Shown here: positions 16,690-46,323 of the stretch, one piece after another
Numbering within the stretch: the first letter of the stretch is position 1
Layout of the letters: every line of letters begins with the position of its first letter
DNA from: an uncultured Gammaproteobacteria bacterium
GTDB taxonomy: Bacteria > Pseudomonadota > Gammaproteobacteria > CAWCPV01
Assembly (NCBI GenBank): GCA_963797555.1
Contig: CAWCPV010000009.1
Location: 96,001-160,000 of the forward strand
DNA length: 64,000 nt
Reading direction: 5' to 3'
Notes under the pieces: generated by a model
What the model was told of the DNA's origin: nothing
Database searches by the model: none
The model's input: the letters and a program-made list of their open reading frames with translations, nothing else
Position numbers and translations under genes: made by a program

Positions 16690-16950
16690 TTTGCTGTGGC
16701 GTTGTCGATGAGGTTGATCATCCGCCACAACGCGTTGGCCGCCGGGTCGGATCCTGCTCCGCAGTCACCCGTCGGCGGAATCTCCGCTCTGCGGATCGAA
16801 GCAGCCGAAACTCAGCCCGTCCGCGGCCCGGAGCTTCGCGCCGTTGTCTTCGATGAGGACCGGCCGCTGCGTGCCCTCCATGCACCGACTCTCTTCCGTC
16901 CGGCAGTCGCGCCGGTCGGGTCGGTGCGACACCTGGTTTCCCACGATGCA
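16690..16950 (-). pseudogene. Degenerate fragment of a right-handed beta-helix protein (paralog of 18647-19590)
   Basis: DNA similar to 19431-19575; encodes PVLIEDNGAKLRAADGLSFGCFDPQ and MINLIDN. Confidence 0.55.
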
Positions 16951-17464: not shown

Positions 17465-18646
17465 GTGCACATGTCGCAAACTCGAATGAACTGTCTGTCG
17501 ACTGACCTGTACCGCATGATCGACTCGCTCTATGAAACAGTGCTGACTCCCGATGCTTGGAAGGCGGCTCTGCGGCAGCTCACCGAACTATTCGACGGTC
17601 GCGCTGCCCACTTCATGCTGTGGGACCAGCCGACCAACGGCGCCTTGTTCTCTATGATGTGGGGCGATGCCACCGACCAGGCCATGCGGGACTATGCAAA
17701 GCACTACGGCGGGCTGGACTGTCGCCGCGAAGTGGTCGAGAGGCTTCCCGTCGGCCAATGGCTACTCTGCCACGAGCACTTCGACGAAAGGTTCGTGCGC
17801 CGCAACGAGTTCTATAACGATTTCCTGCTGCCCTACGAGGTCCGATATATGGCGGGCGCCCGATTGCTGGACGCGGGCGGCGTCCAGGGCCTTATCGGTG
17901 TCTTTCGGGCACCTGGCCAGTCGCCCTTCGCCGGGGAAGACATCGCAGTGCTGGAAGTCTTGCAGGGTCATCTCTGCCGGGCCGCGCGCTTGAACCACCA
18001 AGCCGCGCGCCTGGGACTCCAGGGGGCCGGCTGCGCCGCCGTCTTGGACAAGCTGGATGTGCCCATCCTCGTGGTGTCGGCGAGCGGCCGGGTCATGTTC
18101 GCGAACGGTGCGGCCGAGGCTCTGCTGGCGAAAGGGGAGACGTTGAAGGTGCGTGACGGGCGCCTGGTCGCCGCCCGTCACGCCGACACCCAGCGGCTGG
18201 ACGCGGTGATGGCCGAGACGCTCATGCACCGCCGCGCCGGTACGCTGCGGCTGCGGTCCTCGAGTTGCCCGGCGCCCCACGAAGTGGCGGTGCTCCCCCT
18301 GCCGGCGCACGAGCCTATCGCAGGCTTGTGGCAGGCGCCGCTGGCTCTGATTACCGTTTCCGCTCCCGGCCAGTCCCGCAGCTTATCCCCAGGTGCCCTC
18401 GGAGCGTGGTTCGGGCTGACCGCGGCGGAGTCCAGACTCGCGCAGGCATTGCTGGACGGCCACACACCCGCGGAGTTCTGCGTTCAAGCGAGAGTGTCCC
18501 TCGCCACGGTGCGCAGCCAGCTACGCTCGCTGTTCGCCAAGACCCAGACCCGCCGACAGGCGGAGCTGGTCCGGCTGTTGCGGCTGCTTCCTCCTCATCC
18601 TGCCGTACCACGGTCGCAGGCCGGGCGAGACCTCGTCGAACGGTAA
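17465..18646 (+). CDS. LuxR-type HTH transcriptional regulator with sensor/PAS region
   Basis: C-terminal FGLTAAESRLAQALLDG...SLATVRSQLRSLFAKTQTRRQAELVRLL; PAS-like VVSASGRVMFANGAAEALL. Confidence 0.88.
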   Translation: MHMSQTRMNCLSTDLYRMIDSLYETVLTPDAWKAALRQLTELFDGRAAHFMLWDQPTNGALFSMMWGDATDQAMRDYAKHYGGLDCRREVVERLPVGQWLLCHEHFDERFVRRNEFYNDFLLPYEVRYMAGARLLDAGGVQGLIGVFRAPGQSPFAGEDIAVLEVLQGHLCRAARLNHQAARLGLQGAGCAAVLDKLDVPILVVSASGRVMFANGAAEALLAKGETLKVRDGRLVAARHADTQRLDAVMAETLMHRRAGTLRLRSSSCPAPHEVAVLPLPAHEPIAGLWQAPLALITVSAPGQSRSLSPGALGAWFGLTAAESRLAQALLDGHTPAEFCVQARVSLATVRSQLRSLFAKTQTRRQAELVRLLRLLPPHPAVPRSQAGRDLVER

Positions 18647-19590
18647 TCACGGCAAACAGCCGATGTATCCCGAGACCGGATTGCCCCACTTGACGTAGGG
18701 ACCGCTGATGCACACGTTCTGGGTGGTGACGTTCTCGGCTGCGATATACCAGCCGGTGGTGGGCGGGGCGGTCAGGTCCTCCTCGAAATTGACGCTCTCC
18801 AGAGAATGCGCCGCGCAGCAGGCTCTGGAAGTCCCCGTCGATGCGGCTGTCGTCGCCGTGGACGACGGTGGTGTTGCGCACAATCTCGCGGGTCGAGCCT
18901 TCGTCCAACCACAGCGCCCGAGTTCCGTGGGCGACAATCTCGCTGTCCTCGATGAGGTTGTTCTCGCCGTCCAGCTCCAGCAGCGCGTTGGAGCGGAATA
19001 CGCCCGCCGACGCATAGGGCACGTCCTCGAACCGGCAGCCCACGAGCGGGTGGCGAGCGAAGGGTCCGACGACCCGTAGGCGTTCGGCACGCTGCCGTAG
19101 ATGCGGCTGTTCTCGAACAGCAGGCCGGGCCTGCGCGGGACGACTGACCACGTGGTAGTTCCCCAGAAGGTGCAGTTGCGGAACGTGCTGTAGCCGCCGT
19201 CGCCCGACTCGGAAACCACGCCCGGCCCGGCATTGTCCACCGCCTCGCAGTCCCGATGATGATCCCGTCGGCGCCGTGGTGCGGGCATAGACGTTTCGGA
19301 TGTCCACCCGGACGTTGCCGTAGGCCCGGATGCCGTCGGCCGCGACCTGGCGCCCCTCCGGGCAGGCGCCTCCCAGGAGGTAGCCGTCGAGGTTGCCGTC
19401 GAGCTCGAAGTTCCGGATCGTCACTTTCCTGTTGTCGATGAGGTTGATCATCCCCCAGTAGGCGTTGGCCGCGTGATCGGACTCGGCTCCGCAGTCATCC
19501 GTGTCGGCGGCCCCTCCCGTCTGCGGATCGAAGTAGCCGAACGCAGCCCATCGGCGGCCCGGAGCTTCGCGCCCGCGCCCTCGATGCGCA
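18647..19590 (-). pseudogene. Right-handed parallel beta-helix protein, multiply frameshifted and 5'-truncated
   Basis: Fragments VTIRNFELDGN, ADGIRAYGN, FRNCTFWGTTTWS, FENSRIYGS in different frames. Confidence 0.6.
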
Positions 19591-20199
19591 GGTACTAAAC
19601 GGCGTACGTCTCCGATTATTGGGATCTCTTATCAGTCTGCCGAGAGGGGCCTGCATCCGCCGGATCGCCCGGGTGCGGCTATTTCACGCGCATCAACTTC
19701 AACAGACCGAAATACTGTGGCCGGTTGTCGAAGCTCACACGCGGTAAAGACGATCCACCAGTGCTGGTAGCCGCACGTTCCGCACAGTTGGGGTGATAGT
19801 CGTGCCAGCCCTCCGCCTTGAGCGCATTGTGTCCGTTGGCATCGTTACACGGGGTGACCCCATGAGTGTGGTCGATCTGAAGCGTTACGTTACTGGCCCC
19901 ACCAACTTCACCCATACGGTCCGCACTGACACCCATGACGAACCGATCCACGAGATTCGGGGTACTGCGGCCTTTGAATGGGCCACTCGCGATAGGGCTT
20001 CCGTCACAGACCTGGAAGCCCTCCGGAATCGGAATCTCTTTGTTGGGGCGATACCAGTCGACTACCGTACCGACAGGTACCACTTCCGCCAGGCCTCGGT
20101 GCAACTGGTCGGCGAATTGATCGGTCCGCTTCTGATCATCATCGGCGTTCCGCGCTAAACTATTCGATAGCCGTTGCACCTGCTCTTGCAGGGCACTTA

Positions 20200-21301
20200 C
20201 TAATCCTTTCTTAAGTAAGGCCATATCAGACAGCGTAGCAGCAATGCGGATGCATGAAAAAGCCTTTGACGATTTCTGGCAGCTTCTGGAGCCGGCGCAA
20301 AGCACCGAGGAGTTTGCTCTTGAGATCCTCTTTGCTTTCCACCCGGCGCTTGGCGACGCGGGCTTTCACATGCCCCCAAACCTGTTCGTCGGGATTGAGT
20401 TGGGGCGAGTACGGGGGGAGGAAGAACAGCTTAAGGCGCCCGTTCTGTTCGCCGATGAAGTCCTGGATCAATCGTGCCTTGTGGATGGGATGGCCATCGA
20501 CGATGAGGAAGACCGGCCGGGTGGCGCCCACCAGCAGGCGCTTGAGGAATTCCTTGAACACCGCGGCGGTCACCGTCCCCTCGTGCACCATGAAGCGCAA
20601 GCCCCCGCGGGCGCTCACCGCCGAGAGCATGGCGAGCGAGAACCGCGCCCCGGTCACCGCGACCACCGGGGTCTTGCCCATCGGCGCCCAAGTGGTGCCG
20701 GCGTGGTAGTCGGAGCGCATCCCCGACTCATCCCCAAAGTAGATGGTCGCCCCCACGCGCTTGGCCTCGGCCTGGATGGCGGGAAATTGCTCTTTCTGCC
20801 AGCGCTCGACCAGCACCGGATCGCGCTGCCAGGCACGGTAGAGCGGCTTCTGGGCAGTGAATCCCAGCACCCGCATCACCCGCCTGACGGCGGAGTCCGA
20901 AAGGCGCTTGTTGAACCGCCGCTCGATCAACCTGCCGATGAGCGGCAGGGTCCACAGCGCAAACTCGAATCGGAACTGCTGCGGCGTGTGCTCGCGCACC
21001 GCCCCCGCCAGCCAGCGCATCTCCTCGGCGCCAAGCAGCGGCGGGCGGCCCGGGATCGGCTTGGCCAACAGCGCGTTCTGTCCCCCCGAGGCAAATGCCG
21101 AGAGCCAGCGAAACACGGTGCGAATGTTCAACCCGAAGGCCTGCGCTACGCTCTGTACCGTCTGTCCGTGACGCACCGCTTTCACGGCTTGCTGGCGCAG
21201 CACCTGCAGGCTCCTATGATCGAGCTTGCGCCCGTCCGATTCGCGCTTGCATTTCATGCCCCCATTGTACCAACATATGGCTTTACTTAAAATGGACTTA
21301 G
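20200..21301 (-). mobile_element. IS630-family insertion sequence, copy 1 (1102 bp)
   Basis: Imperfect IRs CTAATCCTTTCTTAAGTAAGGCCATAT / CTAAGTCCATTTTAAGTAAAGCCATAT; TA duplicated at a TTAA site. Confidence 0.95.
20226..21257 (-). CDS. IS630 transposase (343 aa)
   Basis: HTH, then FGDES, LIVDG and LPPYSPQLNPDEQVW DDE motifs. Confidence 0.95.
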   Translation of the reverse strand: MKCKRESDGRKLDHRSLQVLRQQAVKAVRHGQTVQSVAQAFGLNIRTVFRWLSAFASGGQNALLAKPIPGRPPLLGAEEMRWLAGAVREHTPQQFRFEFALWTLPLIGRLIERRFNKRLSDSAVRRVMRVLGFTAQKPLYRAWQRDPVLVERWQKEQFPAIQAEAKRVGATIYFGDESGMRSDYHAGTTWAPMGKTPVVAVTGARFSLAMLSAVSARGGLRFMVHEGTVTAAVFKEFLKRLLVGATRPVFLIVDGHPIHKARLIQDFIGEQNGRLKLFFLPPYSPQLNPDEQVWGHVKARVAKRRVESKEDLKSKLLGALRRLQKLPEIVKGFFMHPHCCYAV

Positions 21302-23854
21302 TAAGCGTTGCCCCAGCTCTGCCGGCTCGGAAGCTGAAGGCGCAGGGGCCTGCTGCCCCCAAGCCGTCACCAGCGCACCGCACAGCGCACCCCCTGCCAC
21401 TAACAGTCTCGAACACTTGGACATCGAGCTACCCTCCGATAACGGTCGTAAAACAACAACACAAACGGGCCCCCGTTTCCTTCATCTGTGGTTCACCACA
21501 TAGGGCGGTCGTTGAGCCACCGGCAAGTTTTTGATCACTGGGCCGCATTCCGAGGCGCTTGCTGCGATACACCGATCAAATCGATACGCAAAACAGCGTC
21601 ATCCGGCAAGCCCCTTAGAACGCTTTCAGCATTCTCCCGGCCCCTCACTCGATAGGTCGCGAACAAAGGGCGGGTCTGGAGCCCCTTCCGCTGCACACTC
21701 CCTTCCTGCAGGGCGATGCGTCCGAGTGCAGGCAAGTTAATCGGAACTGCTTCGATTTGTCCATTTTTTGACACCCGGATCCACCCGTCGTTATCTTGGT
21801 ACAGGTCCAGCGAAAGCTGGCCCGTCTCCCAGTCGATTGGGGACCGCCCCGGAACGATCGAAAATATGGCACCCACGAGACGGTGCTGAATTTCATCCGA
21901 CCTTACATTCCATACACAGTCGAGTGTTAGCGTGTTCCCGGGCTCGCTCTGAGGCGTGCAAGGACGATTGGTCTCATCTGTAGTGACATACGGTCGGACC
22001 CGGAAGCGCAATTCGCCATTCCGTCGAACGAGGTAACGTTCGATGTCCGACTTCGTTAGCTTAGGCCCAGGCTGGACATGGACCTGGGGATCCACTTGTA
22101 GCGGCACATTTTTGCAGGTATTTCTTAACAGATCCTTATCGATATTCTTGAAGTTTCTGCTACTGAGTACCAATATGTCGTTCTGCAACCCCTGGCACCA
22201 ACGAGCAGTCTCAGCCAGTAACGACCTCAACGCCTCTTTAACATCCGCCGCGTCGGGCGTGTTGTAACTGGGAGTCCAGGACAGGCAGTCCTCTCCGCCC
22301 GGCTTCTCGGAGTCCTGGCATACATGTTGGACAAGATAATAAGCTTCGAAAACCTGCCAGGCCTGCGCTAGTGTTGCGTTGGCCAGATCGAGATAGAAGT
22401 TCTTGACCTGCTCTGCGGCCTGCTTTTCTTGCTGGTCCCAGATGCGATAAGTCATGTTCCACCTCGCTACGCGATCCCCTGCCATTTGCTCCTCGAGGCC
22501 AGCATTCTCAACTGCCATCTGTGCACCCTTCCACTGCTCTTCCAGGGAGCGGACGCGGTTCTCCTGGGCCTGAATGTATGCCTCAACCTTCTTCAGTCCC
22601 ACTTGCTCGATTTTCACACGCAGCTGTGCCGTGAGCGAGGAGATGGCGACAGCCCGGACTGTTTGGGCCTCCGCCAACTGCACATTCGCGGCACCGCGCG
22701 TCTTGTAATCGGCAATCCGGGAACGAAGATCCTGTTTGGCTGCTTCCCACTTTGTTTCCGTCAGCTGTAGCTTCAGGTCCTGAATATTGCGCTCGGTTTT
22801 AGTTATCTCGGATTCGGCCTCCGTTAGCTGTTGCTCCAACCGGCCCTGAGTCTGGTCGAGGGCCTTATCAAACTCGCCCTTGTCGTCGATGTTGACCAAT
22901 GGCTGCACCACGCCTTCCAGGGCTCCCGGCTGGGTGAAGACCGCTAGCCGCGTCTGGGCGTTGGAGACGTTCGTCCTGATTTTCTCTAGGATGTCCCTGA
23001 CCTCCTTCGGAAGAGGCGCTGGCGGAAGCGCCTCCACGATGGTATCCGCCGTGGCTATGCCCTGGTTCAGGGCCTCCTGGAGTTGGGCGAGCGGGCGGCC
23101 TGCGGCCTCGGCCAGCTTGCTAAGCAGTTCCTGACGCTTTGAGGCTAAGGCCTGACCCAAGGTCTGCACATCAGCCTCGGGGACCTGCTTCCTGATTTCG
23201 TTGATCAAGGCCACCACATTGCGCTCGAAGCTTTCGCTTGTTTGGAACCAGGCAGGTGCGTCAGTCCACGAACCACTCAACATCTGCTGAAGTCCCAACG
23301 TCAGATCCGGCGAGCGCAGGAGGTTTTTGGCTGCCGTCTCGACTTCGGGACCCTGGTTCTTCAGCGCGCTTGTAGCCGCTGCGATAGCCGCATCCTTAGC
23401 TTGCTGTTGCAGCCTCGTCAGGTCCTCGGTCTTGAAGCTCCTGACGCCCAGTTTATTCATTAGATCGTGGATCGGCGACTGCTCTCCCCCGGTACTCCTC
23501 GTCAACCCCGTGGCCAGATAGGACACCCCCAGTTGCCAGGCCTGATGGCCTATGGCGCTCACTCCCGCGTTGTCGATCTTGATAGCGCCGACCACATTGT
23601 CTGTGAGCGGGTGGAGCTGCTTTGCCACATCGTTAAAGGAAGTCAGTACCGGAGCATCGAGATCCCTGACCGCAGAGTCCAGCCCCGAGCCCAACTTACC
23701 ACCGCTTGCCATATTGGCGGTATTGAACGCGTTCGTAAGCCCACCCAGGACATCGCCTCTCCCGATGGAATTGGCGCTGTTGATTGCGCCTTCGGCGATG
23801 GCTACGACATTTACACCCACGAAATACTGGGAGACCACGCCAGCAACGGACTTA

Positions 23855-24956
23855 CTAATCCTTTCTTAAGTAAGGCCATATCAGACAGCGTAGCAGCAAT
23901 GCGGATGCATGAAAAAGCCTTTGACGATTTCTGGCAGCTTCTGGAGCCGGCGCAAAGCACCGAGGAGTTTGCTCTTGAGATCCTCTTTGCTTTCCACCCG
24001 GCGCTTGGCGACGCGGGCTTTCACATGCCCCCAAACCTGTTCGTCGGGATTGAGTTGGGGCGAGTACGGGGGGAGGAAGAACAGCTTAAGGCGCCCGTTC
24101 TGTTCGCCGATGAAGTCCTGGATCAATCGTGCCTTGTGGATGGGATGGCCATCGACGATGAGGAAGACCGGCCGGGTGGCGCCCACCAGCAGGCGCTTGA
24201 GGAATTCCTTGAACACCGCGGCGGTCACCGTCCCCTCGTGCACCATGAAGCGCAAGCCCCCGCGGGCGCTCACCGCCGAGAGCATGGCGAGCGAGAACCG
24301 CGCCCCGGTCACCGCGACCACCGGGGTCTTGCCCATCGGCGCCCAAGTGGTGCCGGCGTGGTAGTCGGAGCGCATCCCCGACTCATCCCCAAAGTAGATG
24401 GTCGCCCCCACGCGCTTGGCCTCGGCCTGGATGGCGGGAAATTGCTCTTTCTGCCAGCGCTCGACCAGCACCGGATCGCGCTGCCAGGCACGGTAGAGCG
24501 GCTTCTGGGCAGTGAATCCCAGCACCCGCATCACCCGCCTGACGGCGGAGTCCGAAAGGCGCTTGTTGAACCGCCGCTCGATCAACCTGCCGATGAGCGG
24601 CAGGGTCCACAGCGCAAACTCGAATCGGAACTGCTGCGGCGTGTGCTCGCGCACCGCCCCCGCCAGCCAGCGCATCTCCTCGGCGCCAAGCAGCGGCGGG
24701 CGGCCCGGGATCGGCTTGGCCAACAGCGCGTTCTGTCCCCCCGAGGCAAATGCCGAGAGCCAGCGAAACACGGTGCGAATGTTCAACCCGAAGGCCTGCG
24801 CTACGCTCTGTACCGTCTGTCCGTGACGCACCGCTTTCACGGCTTGCTGGCGCAGCACCTGCAGGCTCCTATGATCGAGCTTGCGCCCGTCCGATTCGCG
24901 CTTGCATTTCATGCCCCCATTGTACCAACATATGGCTTTACTTAAAATGGACTTAG
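23855..24956 (-). mobile_element. IS630-family insertion sequence, copy 2 (1102 bp)
   Basis: Appears identical to copy 1; TA duplication within CTTAAG. Confidence 0.95.
23881..24912 (-). CDS. IS630 transposase
   Basis: Same 343-aa protein as copy 1. Confidence 0.95.
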   Translation of the reverse strand: MKCKRESDGRKLDHRSLQVLRQQAVKAVRHGQTVQSVAQAFGLNIRTVFRWLSAFASGGQNALLAKPIPGRPPLLGAEEMRWLAGAVREHTPQQFRFEFALWTLPLIGRLIERRFNKRLSDSAVRRVMRVLGFTAQKPLYRAWQRDPVLVERWQKEQFPAIQAEAKRVGATIYFGDESGMRSDYHAGTTWAPMGKTPVVAVTGARFSLAMLSAVSARGGLRFMVHEGTVTAAVFKEFLKRLLVGATRPVFLIVDGHPIHKARLIQDFIGEQNGRLKLFFLPPYSPQLNPDEQVWGHVKARVAKRRVESKEDLKSKLLGALRRLQKLPEIVKGFFMHPHCCYAV

Positions 24957-27686
24957 TAAGTGCGTTGCCCAGCGAACCGAGAAAGCTGGACTTATGGCCT
25001 TCGTCCCACTGCTTCCGCGCATCGTTGATGACCTGAGGGAGTTTCGCGCGGCCGTCCTGGATCTGAATCTTCAGCTCCTGCACGGGGTTCTGTTGCTCAA
25101 GCTCCCGAATCTTACCTTGCATGTCCGCGAGCTGTTGCTGTAGCTGCTGCTGAACCCCCAACTCTTCGAGTTGACTGAAAGCCGCGGCGGCCCGTCGGTC
25201 CTCAATGGATGCCAAATGCCTGTACTCGGCGGCCTTCCGATTGTAATCCTGTTGCTGAACCTCTTTGTGCGCCACCTCCGCACGCAGCTGCTGCATCTTC
25301 TGTTCTTGACGCAATGCGCCCAACACAGACTTGCCTTCCTCGAGATCCCAGGATGCCGCGTGCGCCAACGCTACCGCGCGCTTATGCTCGATTTCCCGGC
25401 TCTGTTTCTCATCCTCGAGCGCCTTCCGCGCGAACTGTGACGCTTGGCTCGCATCCAGATGGTCGATGTAAGGCACATAGGATTTTTGCACATAACCCAA
25501 TAACTGCTCCACGTCGCTGCGTGGCCAACCCAGCGCGCCGCCGTAGTAGTCCTCACCGAAATTCAACTGGTTCAAACGCACCTGAATCTCGCGTTGGAAA
25601 TCGGCTCTCTCCAGCGCAAGCAGTCGCCCGAGCAGCCCGAGCTGATACGCAGGACTCGCTTGCTGGAAAAGCCACTGCGCTTGCAAATACAGGGTCAGAG
25701 CGCGGTCCGCGTCGCGCTTCTGCCGATCGTTCCATCCGTTTACGATGGAGCGCGGGCCTGCTTTGCGATACGCGATGTCTGCGGCCCAGATGTAGTAGCG
25801 CCCGAGCAGTTCTGCGAGGGCGGCGCGCTGGTCTTCGGGCAGAGAGGTCACAGACTTGACGTCACGTTTGGGCACCGGCGTACCGGCGTCCAGCAATGGG
25901 GTCCGAAGACCTTGGACCGTTCCGCCGGCGAAGTCGTAAAAACGCGTGCTTTCGTCTTTAAGGACCCTCTGATTGGTGAGATTGAAACGGCCCTGCTTGC
26001 CCTCTGATTCGGGATTGCACAGCCGGCAGACAAACCGGACATAAGCCCAAGGTAGCCACCCCTCAGGTAATCTTGAGGCGCGAAGCGTGGTCAAAGGCGC
26101 CTTTCCAGTCGACGACCCAGGCTGGAACCCAGTTCTGCGGCTCTGTTGCCCTCCATGTGGAGCACCCCCCAAGCAGCCTTACCCACTTCTGGTAATCGTC
26201 GGCCAGTGCATCGGTCGACCAATAGCTTTTGCCCTTAAGGAATTTAATAGCTTCGAGCAGCTCCTGTTCTTGACCGGTACACTCCGCGAGCCAGGTCTTC
26301 CAGTCAACGTCGACCTTGGGTGTTTCCAAACTCCATCGGTCGAACTCCCGGCTCCAGAGGTGCCTGAGCCATTCGAGGTGCGCTCTCAAAGCCTGCTTCC
26401 AGATCGCATGCTTTTCCTTGGCGAACTCGTCCTGTCCGTAGCCAATCGCGATACCCTTTTGGAGTGCTTCACGCTCAAGTCGCTGATCCTGATCGGGCCG
26501 CGTTAGAGACTCCAGCGTGTTGGCTTTGGCGAGTACGTCGAGTAGCTGCCGGCGATATTCCACATCCCAATTCTTGGGTTCCCAGGGCACTCGTCTCCCA
26601 TCGCTGCCCATCTTATTGGCCCGCTGTGGCAGCCAGGGCTGTCGCAGCGCGTAGAGAAAAGGTTCTATGTAGGCTTGAACGGGTACGGAGTTGACGCCAC
26701 CTCTTGCGATGAGAGTAGTCTGGTCCGAGAGAACGGCTCGCAACCGGTCGCCCAACCCGGTATGCTCGTAGCCGCGCTGGCAAGCCAATGCCTTGTAAGT
26801 GTTGGGGTCGACGGCTCGCTGTCTGGCGGCCTGCCTTTCAGAATAATCGGTGATTGCCAGCAGAACCGCGTCGACAGCAGGATCGTAGTCCCGTTTGACT
26901 CCGCAGGCAGATGGGTCTTCCGTCGCGGCGTACTCAGTTAGGGCGAGTCGGAACTTGTCCTCCACAGCGCATACCTGCAGCAGGGTTGCTAGCTGACTGA
27001 TGACAGCCACGTACCGGGTATGTTCTAGCCACTCCCGGTAGGCGTTGAGATCCGCCTCGCATCCCCGAGCGCCAAGGTAGGCAGCCACGACAAAGTCTCG
27101 CCCTTTGCCGTACCGGTGCTCGCTCATGATCTGTCGCGCATCGTCATCCAGTCGCTGCATGAAGGTCGGATTCGCAAGCGCACAAGCCTCGATGACTTCG
27201 CGGGCGGCATCAGCGGTTGCGGTGTAATCGTCACCGCCGGGCTTCATGAGAGCCTTCAATGCATCGAAGTTCTCTGAACCCTCGCATAGCTGTTTGCGGT
27301 GAGCCTGATCCGTGATGCTGATTAGGCCCCTAACGATAGAGGCGACAAGCTCCTGCTGCTTTTCTTCCTCCGGGCGCCCCACTGCGGTATCCAATACTCG
27401 CGGCAGAAAGGACAGCCACTGGGAGATCGTGAGGCTGGAGAATGGCGGCAAGTCGCTAGCTGTCACGCTGGCCCAGGGTTGACTCCAGCAGAGTGCGATC
27501 AAACCTATTGTCAAGCCCCGTTTGAGACGCCCCGGTTTTCTCACGGGTTTCGCTTTCGGGACGCAACCGGCGTCGGCCTCCGAGAGGCAAGGACTACACT
27601 GGCAGTGGCGGACCTGCAGATGAGCCACTACGGGGGCTTCAGGGGCGACGCCTATCATCGTTGAGACCTTCGATTCCATGCTGGCG

Positions 27687-28349
27687 TCACCGCTTTTTGA
27701 GGCAGTTGTCCTGAATGATGCGGCAGTACCCCATGAACAGAGAGCGATAGGCATCCGCTCGCTGGACTCCCTCATCTGCCAGATGTTTCTCGCGCTCCAG
27801 TTCATGCACCTTGTCGTCCAGCTTGTGGAGGAGGTCGGCGGTTTGCGCAGGGTTCTCGTTGTTGAGGAGGTTATTAATTTCATTGAGCGTGCTTACCGAG
27901 AAATAGATGGCCTGGAGGACACACGGAGGCCATTCGGGGCCCGCTAGACACACCCACAACATGGCCTTGCTCACGGACCATAGCGCCGGGCCGGCCGCTG
28001 TATTGACCCAGTTTGTGAGGTGACGCAGTCTAGCGTTCTGGAGGTCTTTGCGGACCTGCTGTAGCTGAGCACGAAGAGCACTGAGGTCTGGGGGTGCGGG
28101 CGGCACAGGCGTGCTGAGAAATAGCTTTTCGCGCAGCGTCTCCGCCTCCGCGCAGGACTTACCGCGTAGAGCTTGATAGGCCGTTTGTAGCTCAGGGCCG
28201 ACGCTGCCGAGGTCTACGATTGCCCTGCTCTCCACCTGAAAGCTACGCAGACACTCACTAGGCAGTTCCCCCGCAAGGGCGGCGGAGGTGGTCGCGATCA
28301 CCATTTCTGCAAGGACCAGCGGGACGCAACAGGGTCTTCTGCCAAGCAT
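27687..28349 (-). CDS. Hypothetical exported Cys-containing helical/coiled-coil protein
   Basis: Signal-like N-terminus (...TTSAALA-G), several Cys, central hydrophobic segment; abuts its neighbours in the operon. Confidence 0.6.
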   Translation of the reverse strand: MLGRRPCCVPLVLAEMVIATTSAALAGELPSECLRSFQVESRAIVDLGSVGPELQTAYQALRGKSCAEAETLREKLFLSTPVPPAPPDLSALRAQLQQVRKDLQNARLRHLTNWVNTAAGPALWSVSKAMLWVCLAGPEWPPCVLQAIYFSVSTLNEINNLLNNENPAQTADLLHKLDDKVHELEREKHLADEGVQRADAYRSLFMGYCRIIQDNCLKKR

Positions 28350-28687
28350 ATCGCGTAACACTCCTTCTCTTGGCGGTCTTTGTAATCCAGGAGCCGGCAC
28401 AGTTCCACCTCAATGTTGCTGCATTGCACCCAAAACCCACGCGAGGGATGAACCGTATTTGTCAGGTAGCTGCATTCATACGTATCCAGAAGCTTGCCCA
28501 GCGGCCCTTTGAGGCACGCAAGCAACTGTTCGGACTGCGGCTTGACGAGTTTATAGAGTTCGACGCTCAGCATCCGACAGTCTTCGTATGTCGGGTCTAT
28601 GGGGCTTTGCGGCAGCGCCCACACGCTCGCTGCGGTGCTCAACCCCAAACAGGTCAGTGTTACGGTGAGGTTGCGAGGCTCAGCCAC
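28298..28687 (-). CDS. Hypothetical small exported Cys-rich protein
   Basis: GTG start 3 nt after the upstream stop; signal peptide ending ASVWA; seven Cys in the mature part. Confidence 0.6.
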   Translation of the reverse strand: MAEPRNLTVTLTCLGLSTAASVWALPQSPIDPTYEDCRMLSVELYKLVKPQSEQLLACLKGPLGKLLDTYECSYLTNTVHPSRGFWVQCSNIEVELCRLLDYKDRQEKECYAICLAEDPVASRWSLQKW

Positions 28688-28689
28688 GG

Positions 28690-29571
28690 TCAGCTCTCGT
28701 GCTGAGCCCAGCAGGCGATTCCCACAGCCGCCTCCTTGTTGGCCACATAGCCCATGTAGAACAAGACATACGCTTTGGCACAGGAGCCCATGATGTTTCC
28801 ACCCGGTTCGAATTTATAGGTCCCGTTCTGCAGTGTCGAAATGACCTGATCAGGGTTGTCGGCAGAGCGTCGAATGCATACCTCCATCTCGGGGGCGCGT
28901 TGCTCATCGGCTTTAGCCTGTTCAAATGCGGCCTGCGCGGCGGTGGCCGTGGTGTAGCCCTGGGCAAGAAGCGTGCGGAAGCCTTCGCGAAGATCGGTTT
29001 CGAGTATCAGCGAGCGGGCCTTCTGGAGGTCCGCGTCCGGGTACTCCGGTAGCCTGGACGCAAGGTAGGCAAGGGTGCGAGGGCATGGACCTGCTGTGGC
29101 GCCCACGGATCGGGGTGGGTCCGCAGCTTCAGCGCTAGACACGCCTAACGCCTCGCTGGTGTTAGAGGCGAGAATGGTGCGGTGCGAGCCCGAAACTTGA
29201 GCCAGAGTGGTGCCTCCTCCAACGGTCGCGGTGGACACCGGAGACATGGTGGACCCGCCCCTGGCCTGAGCGATCTGAGAAACGCCTCTATTTACCGTTG
29301 CAATATAGCTCTCCTGTTGCTCTGGTGTCTGTTCGCACAGCGGACAGAACCCCTCGTATTTGACCCCTTTGCCTTCTACGGCGTCAGAGACCGTCCCCAT
29401 CAACCCTGGGTGCCACATCCCGAGGGTACCCACCATAACGACACCGTCGACCAAGGCGAAGGGGAGGGAGGCGGCGGTCGCTAAGCCTTCTCGTGGGCTC
29501 GCACACCCGAAAAGCTGCCCGCCAGCAGAGAGAACGAGCGCAACTTGCACAAGTGCTTTGGACATGCTCAT
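28690..29571 (-). CDS. Hypothetical lipoprotein
   Basis: GGAGGAG RBS; MSMSKALVQVALVLSAGGQLFG-C lipobox-like; Ser/Thr/Gly linker; Cys-containing C-terminal helical domain. Confidence 0.65.
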   Translation of the reverse strand: MSMSKALVQVALVLSAGGQLFGCASPREGLATAASLPFALVDGVVMVGTLGMWHPGLMGTVSDAVEGKGVKYEGFCPLCEQTPEQQESYIATVNRGVSQIAQARGGSTMSPVSTATVGGGTTLAQVSGSHRTILASNTSEALGVSSAEAADPPRSVGATAGPCPRTLAYLASRLPEYPDADLQKARSLILETDLREGFRTLLAQGYTTATAAQAAFEQAKADEQRAPEMEVCIRRSADNPDQVISTLQNGTYKFEPGGNIMGSCAKAYVLFYMGYVANKEAAVGIACWAQHES

Positions 29572-29679
29572 TACCGGCTCCTCCCGAGATCCTCCGATAT
29601 GCCCGCGTTCAACTGGGGCGGCCAACGTGGGTTGCGCGGACCGCAATTCAACCTACGCAACTGGTCTCTGTCGCCAGCG

Positions 29680-30429
29680 TCATGGCGTGAGGTTATTGAC
29701 GGTGCTGCACCCTGCGCCCTGCAAGGACAGGTTGGTGCCATTCAATGTCGCGGTGTTACCGATCAGGTTGCTCGCGCAGGTAGCATATATGCCGAAATTT
29801 GTATTACCCAAAGCGGTATTGTTGACAACTGTGCTGCCATTTCCTACATATATGCCGATATTGCCGTTCAGGTCGGCCGTGTTACCAGTGATGGTAGAAC
29901 CAACGTTGACCACGATCCCGCTATGGGTGTTGTAATTCGACGTATTGCCGGTCACAACGCAACGGGACCCGACGTTCATGCCGTCACCATTCTGATAAAA
30001 GAGGCTGTCCTTGACGATACACAGGTCGTTGGCGCCGACGCCGATGTTGCTGTTACCGACCAGGTTCATCCGTTCGACCATTACCTGGATACCGTTAACG
30101 CCGAAGTCGATCCCTGTCTCGAAATTGGTGATCGTTCCATTTCTGACAGTAATACCCGTGCGGACAGCCCCGTCACTCCTGATCGCACTCCCCGTTCCGT
30201 TGCCAAAGATCGTGAAGCCGTTGAGATCGATGGAAACGAAGTCGGCCGCCAACACAAGACAATCACCTGAGGCGTTAAGGTTGCCGGTTAGCGCATAGGA
30301 CCCGGACTGACCGATCGTCCTACACTTGCCGAGCCCGCCGGCCGATGCCGCGGCAAGGCCGTCCGTGGCATGAAATCCCAGGCTCACTGCGAGCACCGCA
30401 CCTGCAATCAGGGACTTTTGTTTCTTCAT
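29680..30429 (-). CDS. Secreted right-handed parallel beta-helix protein
   Basis: Signal peptide; GSYALTGNL, SIDLNGFTI, ITVRNGTI and repeated (V/I)xGNTAxxNxxxGI. Confidence 0.85.
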   Translation of the reverse strand: MKKQKSLIAGAVLAVSLGFHATDGLAAASAGGLGKCRTIGQSGSYALTGNLNASGDCLVLAADFVSIDLNGFTIFGNGTGSAIRSDGAVRTGITVRNGTITNFETGIDFGVNGIQVMVERMNLVGNSNIGVGANDLCIVKDSLFYQNGDGMNVGSRCVVTGNTSNYNTHSGIVVNVGSTITGNTADLNGNIGIYVGNGSTVVNNTALGNTNFGIYATCASNLIGNTATLNGTNLSLQGAGCSTVNNLTP

Positions 30430-31038
30430 GGCTCTCTTTCTCCTGCTCACTAACTGCCCGAATTAACCCACCTTCAAGCCCAGCCAGCATCCGGAATCAG
30501 AGTCCGCCGGGTGCCCAAGCATCACCGCCGGGCAGGATTATGGAAGCCGGGAGGTAGCCGCGTCATCATCCATTTGGGTGATGACAGGAGGCGATTCCCA
30601 GAATCGCCCCAATGCATGACGACCCGTCGTTCCGCGAATAAGTGGGCAGGATTCGAGAGACGGAATGCAGAGACCTCGGAAGCCGGATCGCCGGGAGAGG
30701 CAGCTTCAGTCCGGCGCGATGGTCTGGAACGGCCCGGCGAGCAGCCGGCGCACCAGCTCGCTCTGCCGGCGCACGCCCACTTTCTGGAAGACGGATTGGA
30801 GCTGGGTGCGGATGGTATTGGGGCTGGTGCGCTGGTTTTTCGCGATCTGCTTGACGGTCATGCCATTGGCCACGGCGACCGCCACCCGGGCCTCGGCCAG
30901 GGTGAGACCGTAGACGACGGCGAGTGCTTCGGAAGACAGCGGGTGGCTGTGGTGCGGGTCGCACAGCAGCACGGCGGCGGGGATGCGCTCGTTCTCGCGT
31001 CCCCCCAGCATCCCGCCGCCCCGGACCGCAACGCCTAG

Positions 31039-33047
31039 CCCGACTTCGCGGATTCGCGCGGCGATTGGCCCGCTGGCCAGGGGTAAGTGATTGTTTGTGG
31101 GGACCGTGGTGGGCCAAAAAGGGTCGAAATGCGCTGTAGTGAAGACCTTGCTTGTTTTCAAGGGGAAAAATCTGCGGATAATGATGTTCCATCATGTTTC
31201 TACGGGCCACGACGCGGAAGAAAGACGGCAAGGAGCACCGTTACTGGAGTATTGTCGAGAATAGGCGCCTGAGCGGTGGGCGCGTGCTGCAACGGCATGT
31301 GCTGTATTTGGGTGAGATCAACTCCTCGCAGGAGTTGGCGTGGCGCAAATCCATTGAGGTGTTCGAAGACGGGGCGCTGACACCGCGCACGATGTCGTTG
31401 TTTCCCGAGGAGCGATCTGAAGAGCTGTCGAGGGATGCTTCGGTGGTACGTTTGCGGCTGAAAGAATTGCGGCTGTGCCGACCGCGGCAGTGGGGTGCGT
31501 GTTGGCTGGCGCTGCAACTGTGGGAGGAATTGCAGTTAGATCGCTTCTGGTGGGAACGGTTAACGCCGAGTCGCAAGGGCACTCGGTGGGATCAGGTGTT
31601 ATTCGTGCTCGTGGCCTATCGGTTGCTGGCACCGGGCAGCGAGTGGCGGTTGCACCGGGAGTGGTTTGGCCGTACGGCCTTGACGGATTTGCTCGGAGCG
31701 GATGCGGCGCTCTCCGACAGCCACCGGCTGTATGTCTGTCACGACCGCTTGCTGGAGCACAAGGTGGCGGTCTTTGACCATCTGGTGCGGCGGTGGCGGG
31801 ATCTGTTCAATGCCACCTTCGAGGTGCTGCTCTACGACCTCACGAGCACCTACTTTGAGTGTGAGCCCCCGCAGTCGGAGCAGGACAAACGACGCTTTGG
31901 CCACTCGCGCGATAAGCGCAGGGACTGTGTGCAGGTGGTGATCGCCTGGGTGGTGACCCCGGAAGGCTTGCCCTTGGCCTATGAAGTGTTGGCGGGCAAT
32001 ACGGCCGACAAGACGACGTTGAAGGAGTTCCTCGCGCGCATTGAGCGTCAGTACGGAAGAGCGCAGCGGATCTGGGTGATGGACCGCGGCATTCCGACCG
32101 AAGCGGTGCTGGAAGAGATGCGCGCAAGTGACCCGCCAGTGCACTGACCTGGTGGGCACGCCCAAGGGGCGGCTCAGCAAATTGGAGAACGCGCTGCTGC
32201 TCAAGCCGTGGCGGGAAGCGCGCCCCGGCGTAGCCGTGAAACTGTTGCCGCAGGAGTGGGGAGCTGTATGTGTACGCGCAAAGTGAACAGCGCGTGGCGA
32301 AGGAGCGTGCGATACGACGGCGCAAGCTGAAGTGGTTGTGGGCGCGGTTGAAGAAACTCGCGACCATGCAACTCACCCGCGAGCAGCTGCTGATGAAGCT
32401 CGGTGCGGCGCGCCAACACGGCCCAGCGGTATGGCGCTTGGTTCAACTGGAGGTCGACCCCAAGGACGCCACGTTTAGCTACCGCCTGCGCCGCGATAAG
32501 CTGCGTGAAGTGCGCCGGCGCGAAGGACGGTATCTGCTGCGCACCAATCTCACCGACACCGATCCCGCCAAGCTATGGGGGTTTTACCTGCAACTGGTGG
32601 CGGTGGAAGAAGCATTCAAGAATCTCAAGGGGGATTTGGCCATTCGGCCAATCTTTCATCAACACATCGAGCGTATCGAAGCCCATATCTTCATTGCCTT
32701 TCTTGCCTATTGTCTGCATGTCACGCTCGGGCGACGTTTGCATGCGCTCGCGCCTGGATTAACCACGCGCAGCGTGCTGGAGAAATTCGCCGCCGTGCAG
32801 ATGGTCGACGCACAGGTGCCGACCACCGATGGGCGCGAATTGACGTTCACCCGCTACACCCAACCTGAGCCAGAACTGCAACTGCTCCTAGCGCAGTTGA
32901 AGCTCGAACTGCCCGCACCACCAGCTCCGAAAATCAGCACCGCCCACACTGCCTCAGCCGCCGCGATGTAGTGCAGACCTTGCCAGGCGCCCTCTCGCAA
33001 TTTCAACCACTTACGCTATCCCTACCCCGCGAATCCGCGAAGTCGGG
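31039..33047 (+). mobile_element. IS1634-family insertion sequence
   Basis: Perfect IR CCCGACTTCGCGGATTCGCG at both ends, flanked by CTAG on both sides. Confidence 0.9.
31194..32971 (+). pseudogene. IS1634 transposase with premature stop (32145) and frameshift
   Basis: MFLRATTRKKDGKEHRYWSIVE, LLYDLTSTYFE, VMDRG, VEEAFKNLKGDLAIRPIFH. Confidence 0.88.
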
Positions 33048-34239
33048 CTAGGACCGGCAGCGGTGCCAAGACATTCCGGTGCCGCAGCCCGATGGCGGTC
33101 ACGCCTTCCGGGCCATCGGGCGGGGCCTCGATCGCTGCGGCGATAAGCTGTTCGAGCTGCTTCGCCTGCTCGGGCTCGGTAACCGCAATCCGTTCGCCCC
33201 GGAGGCACAGCGCCGGATGTGTGTGGAGAATGGATTTCGCCAGGGGGTTGAGATACCGCACTCGGCCCGCGCTATCGAGCAGCACCAGTCCGATGACCAG
33301 GCGGTCGAGGCTCGCGTGGAGCACCTCGTCCCGCCGGCCGAGCCGCACGAACTGCTCATGGAGGCGAGAGCGCGCTGGAAGTGCGGGGCGAGCTGCGTGA
33401 GGAGATCCAGCTCGTCCGCGGCCCAGGGCCCTTGGCTGCGCCCCCGGTGGAGGGTGATGGCGGCGGTACAGGTGTCGTCCCGGAACAGGTGTACGCCAGC
33501 GACGTGGTAGTAGTCGTAGGGCTCCATGAACTCGGCGTAGAACTCGCCGCAGAGGCGTTCCAGCTCGGATCGGGAAGGCGCCAGGAGTGATCGGCCCAGG
33601 CCGCGCCGAGGGGCACGGCCTCCGCGCTCAGTCGGTAGAGGGGGTCGAGCCGCCGGTAGTACTCATGGTACGCCCTCTCCGCGTCCGGGGCGACGCCGTG
33701 GACGACGGTGAGGTCGGCTTGCGGGTTCTCCAGGTTGCGATAGACAAGCGCCGAAGAACGAGACCGCGTCAGCTCCGCCAGTCCTTTCAGGACATCCGCC
33801 CAGCGTTTTCGGTCCTGACTCGCCTTGCAGATGTTTCCCGCGAGATCGAGCACGGCCTTCGGTGACGGCTCCATGGCTTTTCTTCTGATGCTGGTTGTCG
33901 AGCCACGTGCTCCGGGAGCAAGCGGACGCGTCCGGATACCATGATGGATAGCGAAACGCATTGTTGCATCACCTGTTTGGGTGATAGCTCGCGGAGGTAA
34001 GCCCCGCCTCTGGCGGGCGACGCCCTGGCGTTTGATCTATACGGCAGGAATCGAAAGGGCAAGCCCTTCTATTCCCTCCTTCTTGACGGGCCATCAACGG
34101 GGAGGGCGAGGGCTGAGGGTGAACGGTGTGCCACCTGTCGACCTTTCACCCTCTTCCCAGCCTTCCCCCATCCAGGGGGAAGGGGACATTGCCGCCTTGC
34201 GCGGCTCACCGTTTTATTAGGCGCCGTGGTCGGCACCTA

Positions 34240-45359: not shown

Positions 45360-46323
45360 GACCGGCCAGGCCATCCAACAGGCGCTCGCCGTTTATAACG
45401 ACCCGACCATTCAGCAGAAAGTGCCGGATGCCCGCTTGCGGGCCAGTCTCGCCATGCTGATCGGCACGCCGGGCGAAGGCACAATTGATACCGTTAAAAG
45501 CAGCGATTTGGTGGATAAAGTGGTGTTTGCCCCAGTGCCCTCCGGTTTAAACGCGGATCCCTATGCGTGGATCTCCGTCAATGATCAACAGACTGCTCTC
45601 ACGATTTCTGTAAACCAGAAATATGAATATGAAGATCCTCGCCTGCTGGCATCTATAGTGCCGCATGAGGGAATTCATATTTCACAGGCCAATCTGGATG
45701 GTTTACTTGATGGGACAAATACAGGCGATCTTCAACCCGATGAAACCATTGCGGAGACGGTTGCCGCAGCCACCTATGCGCAGTTTGTTACCGAAGACCC
45801 GACCCTGGCCGGCCCGAAGCGGGATGCCAAAGGGCAGCCGGTTATCGGAAATAACGGGTTTCCGGTGGCTCAGTCGGAACTGCAGCAACGTCGGAACATG
45901 GCTCTGCTGGCCCTGGTGAACACTCGGGTCAATGGGCAGGTTCGCCTGGAAGATTCCGATAGCGGCAATGTGTTCCCCAACGCTGTGACGCCGTTGAGTT
46001 CATTTACGGACCTGTTTAGAGATCTCCCTCCCATCGATCAGGATGGCGGCCCGGCCATGCAAGCCGCCGTGGACAAGCTGGTTGGCTACCACGTGCCCAA
46101 CCCCCGTGCGGACCAGGCCACCGTGGATGTATTGGATAAGAACATCCACAACTACTTTCCACCCCAGGAGTGGGTTGGCATTATGCAAGCCCTGCAATTG
46201 GATGTGTGGCCATACACTCAGGACGGAATGAATGACCATGGCCCTAAGAATGATCCCCGTAATGGCCATGGCAATAAGAATAAAGGTCCTTTGGGGTCTT
46301 CAACTTTAAATCAATTTGCTTAA
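45360..46323 (+). CDS. Hypothetical protein with HExxH motif, probably 5'-truncated, lower GC
   Basis: Frame stays open upstream of the 45421 GTG to a stop at 45313; LLASIVPHEGIH with downstream E (DETIAE). Confidence 0.55.

Follow-up and report, generated by a model that had tools for sequence, protein, structure and literature searches.

What does a protein do when its predicted fold resembles the pore half of a Tc toxin and its gene lies beside a tail-collar gene, with none of the other Tc genes nearby? The question is raised by six minus-strand genes in a 64,000-nucleotide stretch of DNA from an uncultured gammaproteobacterium. This whole stretch is called the window; it corresponds to G000:C9:96001-160000, and genome G000 is a 5.35-Mb assembly of 20 contigs that is 84.6% complete. 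A sequence-only reading had proposed that the six products form one Sec-exported, disulfide-stabilised complex built from Tc-like and tail-fibre-like parts. Our analysis moves the weight to two of the six, as the conserved core consists of the giant gene and the adjoining collar gene. The explanation we favour, to which we give an even chance, is a TcA-like pore half that would act without TcB/TcC cargo and would form a conserved two-gene module with a collar fibre. As a separate matter, we consider it probable that the giant protein is a remote homologue of the TcA pore half.

Predicted fold of the giant protein

The fold was predicted with AlphaFold2 for P0004, an intact homologue of the giant protein (1,177 amino acids (aa), 18 alignment rows), and the model has a predicted local distance difference test score (pLDDT) of 68.6 and a predicted template modelling score of 0.45. 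In this model residues 147-263 form a helical bundle and residues 265-444 a helix of ~180 residues. An apolar turn predicted with low confidence (431-502) leads to a helical insert (490-740), and the return helix (744-887) is followed by a C-terminal beta domain (970-1176). Taken overall, and with moderate confidence, the predicted hairpin has arms of ~190 and 177 residues and an insert of ~300 aa at its tip. In the model only ~23 residues lead from the last bundle helix (217-241) to the hairpin, and it shows no beta domain there; Tc toxins have a stretched linker, a knotted shell, and neuraminidase-like and receptor-binding beta domains. Arm lengths of the hairpin are nearly fixed, at 185-196 and 167-177 aa in 11 of 11 homologues, which share 22-47% identity with the exception of one close pair. 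The tip is formed by a basic amphipathic helix, the stretch after it ranks second in conservation along the protein, and the last strands of the C-domain are among the most conserved parts of the family.

When the P0004 model was compared with the PDB by Foldseek, 15 of the 16 matches at E<=0.001 were TcA proteins, the best at 2e-5. With VIA-align the TcA rows were ordered, running from model residue 250 to the C-terminus against TcdA1 2011-2516 with Z-scores of 8-9.8, and rows of the SMC type stopped ahead of the beta domain. These TcA alignments cover 420 of 927 residues, the 300-aa tip insert having no counterpart. The C-domain of the window protein itself (last 328 residues) was compared with 48,161 chains, and four of the top five were TcB-binding domains of TcA at Z 6.1-6.2 (root-mean-square deviation (rmsd) 3.4-3.8 over 122-128 aligned residues; for TcdA1 2327-2516, Z 6.2, rmsd 3.4 and 122 aligned). 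Foldseek gave no match at E<=0.001 for this domain, and its row of highest probability was YenA2 (0.90). Moreover, the ESM Atlas returned PF18276 for two different queries with scores of 0.88 and 0.79, which we take as leads only. The predicted likeness to TcA (TcdA1 of Photorhabdus, XptA2 of Xenorhabdus, YenA2/TcaB of Yersinia) comprises the bundle, a very long hairpin with an apolar tip and a C-terminal beta-sandwich, and the earlier description of the giant protein as TcA-like holds at the level of a predicted pore-type architecture.

Several results weigh against this reading. The P0004 model begins after the first ~330 residues of the family, the Foldseek TM value of the TcA matches is only about 0.12, and the TcA rows in VIA-align have an rmsd of 14-46 Å. 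Coiled coils of SMC and PrgA reach Z 10-10.7 on the hairpin, above the values for TcA. The window C-domain was modelled at a low pLDDT of 60.5, and its Z of 6.2 is level with the 5.3-6.1 of unrelated jelly-rolls, below the tool's chance range of 7-8. The tip has low pLDDT and is only moderately apolar (19-mer hydropathy <=1.8 where detected). On the side of sequence, hhalign of the giant family against 13 PF18276 proteins gave 1.1% probability (reversed control, 0.8%), and the PF18276 HMM gave no match to the giant family.

A surface stalk or adhesin that forms no pore, made of a coiled-coil hairpin, a generic jelly-roll and a collar fibre, would have its TcA likeness from common shapes. Such a protein would suit the lack of sequence homology between the giant family and TcA, the Z-scores of coiled-coil proteins that equal those of TcA, the carbohydrate-binding and viral jelly-rolls tied with the C-domain, and the beta-helix and lipoprotein neighbours in the window. 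However, the hairpin and the C-domain together, in order, are matched by TcA alone, the amphipathic and apolar tip is conserved and the arms are fixed in length, and five of eight full-length homologues carry no export or anchor signal. We regard the stalk as rather unlikely. On present evidence the giant protein would work like a TcA pore module, and membership among the Tc toxins fails on sequence and on partners. In comparison with TcA it has about 1,500 aa as opposed to about 2,500, no detectable sequence homology, longer arms, the 300-aa tip insert, and a predicted ~23-residue connector where TcA has a stretched linker.

Only one match at E<=0.001 to the model (ma9bb4b265303) was found in BFVD, an uncharacterised 1,032-aa protein of Mimivirus LCMiAC02 (A0A481Z1I0; E 6e-6, probability 1.0, 1,115 columns, TM 0.12), which may likewise combine a hairpin with a jelly-roll. 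PF18276 scored above cut-off in 14 of 401 genomes of the class (loci L013-L039), in open frames up to 4,856 aa, and the variety of TcA-like proteins goes far beyond those with solved structures. The tally includes the unpublished genome G039, and no claim here rests on it.

The two-gene core

In the window the giant and collar genes are both interrupted, and they are read from the following pieces.

26063..27544, minus strand: giant gene piece A, N-terminal domain, ending at a frame break (P0002 residues 54-365, E 3e-7)
24957..26172, minus strand: giant gene piece B, comprising the helical bundle with the descending helix (P0002 residues 375-749, E 4e-22)
23855..24956, minus strand: IS630-family element within the giant gene (PF13358 (DDE_3), E 1e-39; identical copy)
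21535..23838, minus strand: giant gene piece C, from the apolar tip through the helical insert and the return helix to the jelly-roll C-domain (P0002)
21302..21424, minus strand: collar gene, 5' piece with signal-peptide-like N-terminus (three-frame translation, hydropathy 2.3)
20200..21301, minus strand: IS630-family element within the collar gene (PF13358 (DDE_3), E 1e-39; short-read contigs)
19679..20199, minus strand: collar gene, 3' piece with short coiled coil and divergent tail-collar domain (phrog_1800)

Pieces A, B and C are collinear, in order, with the intact homologue P0002; piece B ends at the IS630 copy, and piece C corresponds to residues 769-1494 with E 6.5e-54. The frame break near 26.1 kb is unconnected with any insertion sequence (IS), and since short-read contigs from four soil runs cover the site poorly, it may be a real break or an assembly error. 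A full HMMER scan of piece C against 1.84 billion representatives gave 17 matches at E<=1e-3, namely a copy at 99% identity plus 16 relatives that share 22-33% identity, eight of which are full-length (1,493-1,629 aa). No member of the family has an informative Pfam or NCBIfam match, and the source names across 10 clusters are 'hypothetical protein' alone. Word-index homologue searches added nothing to the full scan, and sequence searches of the PDB returned only coiled-coil noise or nothing. Further loci of the giant gene were found in none of 60 class relatives, in none of 100 and none of 300 genomes around G061 (a genome considered below), nor in viral contigs, plasmids and phages, nor, with a single query, in genome contigs; two short coiled-coil matches among 400 class genomes were rejected as such loci. 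The giant protein is a member of a rare, undescribed family.

The gene downstream was named a collar-domain protein by the sequence-only reading, and this is borne out by its match to phrog_1800, a tail collar fibre (E 3e-8), by three more tail PHROGs and by shared motifs; no Pfam match was found for it. A short-read contig spans the junction between its 5' piece and the 3' end of the giant gene. Two other loci are readable, L002 and L004 (genome G061); L003 is on the same contig as L004 and was counted once, and the L004 record is labelled as an Actinomycetota metagenome-assembled genome. In L002 a Pfam collar gene lies divergent from the giant gene at 259 bp, and in L004 two collar-type genes begin 53 bp downstream of it. 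With the 110 bp of the window, a tail-collar gene is near the giant gene in three of three loci, and a rough chance figure for this adjacency is 1e-4 to 6e-4 per locus. The Pfam collar domain (PF07484) is above cut-off in two of the three collar proteins of the related loci, and the sole Pfam collar match in the 7.5 Mb of G061 is one that adjoins the giant gene.

All four collar proteins (~210 aa) have a short coiled coil ahead of the collar. The motifs of the window collar align with those of the related loci, with a pairwise E of 6e-4 to the L002 collar, and a profile built on the four retrieves short tail fibres of phages from the PDB at E 4e-12. On the other side, a profile of the three other collars misses the window collar, and there are just two outside loci, one with its collar gene divergent. 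The likeness to the tail-collar/T4 gp12 family thus includes the collar motifs, a C-terminal RP-N-type motif and the short-tail-fibre matches. These collars differ from the family in their length, their N-terminal coiled coil and the lack of phage or sheath genes nearby, and the window collar also in its signal-like N-terminus. Stand-alone bacterial collar proteins occur in dioxygenase/sulfotransferase operons according to the accessible part of PMC2938197, whereas the partner here is the giant gene. The check for syntenic loci that the earlier reading had suggested came out divided, the giant and collar genes being paired in all three loci and the four upstream genes having no counterpart in L002 or L004. 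In G061, a run of HEAT-repeat-like genes was seen 4-9 kb downstream of the collar genes.

Cargo partners, upstream genes and export

As described in the accessible part of PMC6795518, TcA is a pentamer whose channel, linker and TcB-binding domain are conserved, and the cargo is held in a TcB-TcC cocoon; the accessible part of PMC7861908 gives as survey criteria tcB (SpvB, TcdB_midN) and an Rhs-core tcC within about 10 kb. The earlier statement that TcB, TcC, sheath and tube genes are lacking from the window locus was confirmed. SpvB and TcdB_midN were not found in the incomplete G000, nor TcdB_midN in the incomplete G061, and nothing TcB-like was found in the window or over 10 kb of downstream sequence in L004. 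The single Rhs core of G000 is a remnant on another contig (G000:C14:25697-25888, L010); this orphan core has a C-terminal extension and lies directly behind a transposase. Against a pore half free of cargo it must be said that G061 has 33 Rhs cores, and with both genomes incomplete, cargo genes at a distance may exist.

This bears on a true Tc-type injector, in which the cocoon would be encoded elsewhere or be too diverged for detection, with the C-domain still docking a TcB-like partner. The retained TcB-binding-like domain with its conserved last strands would fit such a machine, as would the incomplete genomes and the Rhs cores of G061, but the missing SpvB and TcdB_midN, the lack of anything TcB-like near the giant gene and the tip insert without match in the TcA alignments argue against it. 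We think an injector of this kind improbable.

Contractile particles offer another home for a tail-fibre-like part. G000 carries two loci of the extracellular contractile injection system (eCIS) type, at C3:27000-40000 (L046) and C13:52000-65000 (L047); the former contains genes for Pvc16, a tube protein, a VgrG-like protein and baseplate J, and PASTA-domain proteins are encoded both within and next to it. On this account the fibre and cargo of such a particle could come from the giant and collar genes as an orphan accessory locus, since collar domains are tail-fibre parts. However, none of the three loci has sheath, tube, baseplate or spike genes, as PVC/Afp-type eCIS would, nor any eCIS gene nearby, no eCIS sheath was found in the incomplete G061, and Sec signals in the window would part both proteins from a cytoplasmic eCIS. 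We rank this as the least probable of the explanations considered.

The remaining genes of the block and its regulator are as follows.

33053..33961, minus strand: LuxR-type regulator, 5' part (sensor region), in two frames (tblastn)
31034..33052, plus strand: 2-kb DDE insertion sequence within the LuxR gene (PF01609, inverted repeats)
30706..31033, minus strand: LuxR-type regulator, 3' part, GerE helix-turn-helix (PF00196 in Pfam, E 1e-7)
29680..30429, minus strand: accessory right-handed beta-helix protein of 249 aa whose N-terminus is signal-peptide-like (PF13229, E 4e-6)
28690..29571, minus strand: probable lipoprotein, 293 aa, accessory (Cys23 after an apolar stretch)
28298..28687, minus strand: Cys-rich protein 1, 129 aa, truncated by comparison with its 312-aa cluster mate P0031
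27687..28349, minus strand: Cys-rich protein 2, a 220-aa singleton without family assignment (family and cluster searches)

The six genes run in one orientation from 30429 to 19679, as had been noted, with gaps of 108, 2, -52, 142 and 110 bp, so that the earlier phrase 'most gaps short or overlapping' applies to two of the five (2 and -52 bp) and not to the other three. The beta-helix product, which has a strong ribosome site at its gene start, was identified correctly, and the lipoprotein has no Pfam, NCBIfam or PHROG family. Both Cys-rich proteins are present, the first only as a truncated form: the 312-aa P0031, from another assembly, matches it through residue 112, beyond which the two differ, and the point of divergence is 28351, two bases from the ATG of gene 2. 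The C-terminal part of P0031 was not found in G000. That the two genes are one frameshifted gene was rejected, as the P0031 C-terminus is unrelated to gene 2. Judged from these sequences, the truncation of gene 1 at 28351 would mark a deletion or a join of two blocks. Because Cys-rich gene 1 is cut where gene 2 begins and the upstream genes have no counterparts (L002 offers 0.8 kb upstream, which holds its collar gene, and L004 none, being cut within the giant gene), the six-gene 'operon' is likely a mosaic, and the four upstream genes are probably passengers outside the conserved core.

Export signals were judged by eye. The claim that every product is exported stands as far as an apolar N-terminal stretch goes, which is present in six of six window genes (best 9-mer hydropathy 1.7-2.8), and weakens beyond that. 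The signal of the giant gene needs a GTG start at 27544 without a clear ribosome site, and that of Cys-rich protein 2 is atypical, with a Glu within the apolar part. Among the eight full-length giant homologues a signal-like N-terminus occurs in three (P0003, P0010 and P0016), and five have Met directly at the first conserved position; an upstream ATG in P0002 adds 38 aa that are not signal-like. Signals are absent from three of three related collars (L002, L004). Both core proteins have signal-like N-termini in the window, and neither has in L002. On a star-like, poorly resolved tree the signal state takes three changes, and 182 of 500 shuffles were as low, i.e. there is no clustering. From these N-termini signal peptides appear to be optional in the giant family.

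Thus the proposed single Sec-exported, disulfide-stabilised machine of six products under LuxR control could not be upheld. It would account for the co-orientation, the uniformly low GC content at third codon positions (GC3), the six signal-like N-termini, the 6-8 Cys of each small protein and the two secretin genes of G000 above the GspD cut-off. However, the upstream genes are unmatched in L002 and L004, gene 1 is cut exactly at the start of gene 2, as a deletion or cassette join would leave it, most homologues and all related collars lack signals, and giant homologues have 4-10 Cys per about 1,500 aa. We consider this machine very unlikely. LuxR control of the block is indicated by position alone; a LuxR-type gene does lie upstream, as had been claimed, but the IS and a frame break divide it, its 5' part matching in different frames at 33548-33369 and 33369-33130 (E 1e-10, tblastn against the intact plus-strand LuxR gene 17465-18646).

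The earlier reading was also right about the lower GC content: with IS excluded the block has 58.4% GC against 64.6% for the genome, and GC3 of 0.64-0.69 against 0.76-0.84 in five flanking genes. Only 0.9% of 1,306 8-kb genome windows reach GC that low, and therefore the block was likely acquired. No paralogues of the six genes were found in G000, whose nearest relatives in genome comparison share only the class and in which rpoB was not found; genes resembling those for Rsd and DegP point to a gammaproteobacterium. Promoter and terminator counts at the locus were at shuffle level. Exact matches to short pieces of the locus occur in soil metagenomes, in four runs that all belong to a single study, and no RNA dataset is listed among those with such matches.

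The IS insertions recognised earlier, two IS630-type copies and the 2-kb DDE element in the LuxR gene, are real and not long-read errors. Near-full copies of the IS630-family element number 11 in G000. The 2-kb element, presumably IS1634-like, ends in 28-nt inverted repeats, has about 12 long copies in G000, and its ends are also seen in short-read contigs. The reading frame of its transposase (31194-32971) stays open, at 594 aa, in just one of 12 genome copies, the other 11 being broken; as short-read contigs lack single bases at two of its sites relative to the window, the breaks common to the copies may be systematic assembly errors. Ordinary window genes, which we take to be glucose-6-phosphate dehydrogenase-like, WD40 and rmlA-like, are often frame-broken as well, and together with these single-base differences this means that part of the window's frame breaks may be long-read errors. 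Because IS630 copies break both core genes and another IS breaks the regulator, the local copy of the module is most likely dead.

Two further features of the window were seen. Immediately downstream of the collar gene lies a decayed beta-helix-like gene in several frames (18647-19600, minus strand), and ~160 bp of its 5' part are repeated 2.73 kb off (16700-16860, 83-85% identity), beyond the intact LuxR gene 17465-18646. At 45421-46323 (plus strand), between rhamnose-pathway-like genes and a glutamate-synthase-like fragment, there is a 300-aa open reading frame of lower GC with an HExxH motif.

A candidate spike and its meaning

If the favoured two-gene module is right, the ~1,500-aa protein would be related to the pore half of TcA in a reduced form, and as an oligomer it would likely penetrate a target membrane without a TcB/TcC cargo cocoon. 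Several hairpins may bundle into a hollow spike of ~25 nm, whose basic and apolar tip would enter the membrane, and either the pore as such or the ~300-aa insert that the tip carries would cause the damage. The collar protein, a putative trimer by analogy with T4 gp12, would likely be the binding fibre, perhaps for surface glycans, in place of the TcA receptor domains. Since a short connector takes the place of the stretched linker and the tip carries a 300-aa insert, the release trigger is probably unlike the Tc spring. Export would depend on the lineage: the window proteins have signal-like N-termini and the genome a type II secretin, whereas the L002 proteins would leave by lysis because neither carries a signal. 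Lysis also releases YenTc, according to the accessible part of PMC10847048. In G000 the module would sit on a low-GC patch behind three unrelated secreted genes. A more elaborate version, a two-part nanomachine with a TcA-derived hollow spike lacking the TcB/TcC cocoon, a payload or plug of its own at the tip, aiming by the trimeric collar and Sec export in some lineages, is conceivable, and we hold it only tentatively.

As an analogue in working, the Streptomyces umbrella toxin is a secreted particle whose binding spokes are separate from its long stalk (accessible part of PMC11062931). UmbC matches the P0004 model in the coiled coil only (Z 8.6, 162 aligned). In contrast to what that part describes, no repeat family was found by Pfam in 16 giant homologues, the giant C-terminus is conserved and not polymorphic, and a collar replaces the lectin spokes. 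No description of the giant family or of a TcA-like protein paired with a collar was found in the searched literature, subscription journals and supplements being outside reach, nor in the accessible parts of PMC6795518, PMC7861908, PMC10847048, PMC13236867, PMC2938197 and PMC11062931.

By definition Tc toxins are machines of three parts, and published surveys rely on TcB/TcC domains, so that a TcA-like module without TcB/TcC would have been missed. If true, the present reading would reveal what the pore half does alone and give a simpler model for the origin of Tc toxins, and it would tie a Tc-type pore to phage fibre parts. Moreover, as the family has members with and without signals, secretion and lysis could be compared within one machine.

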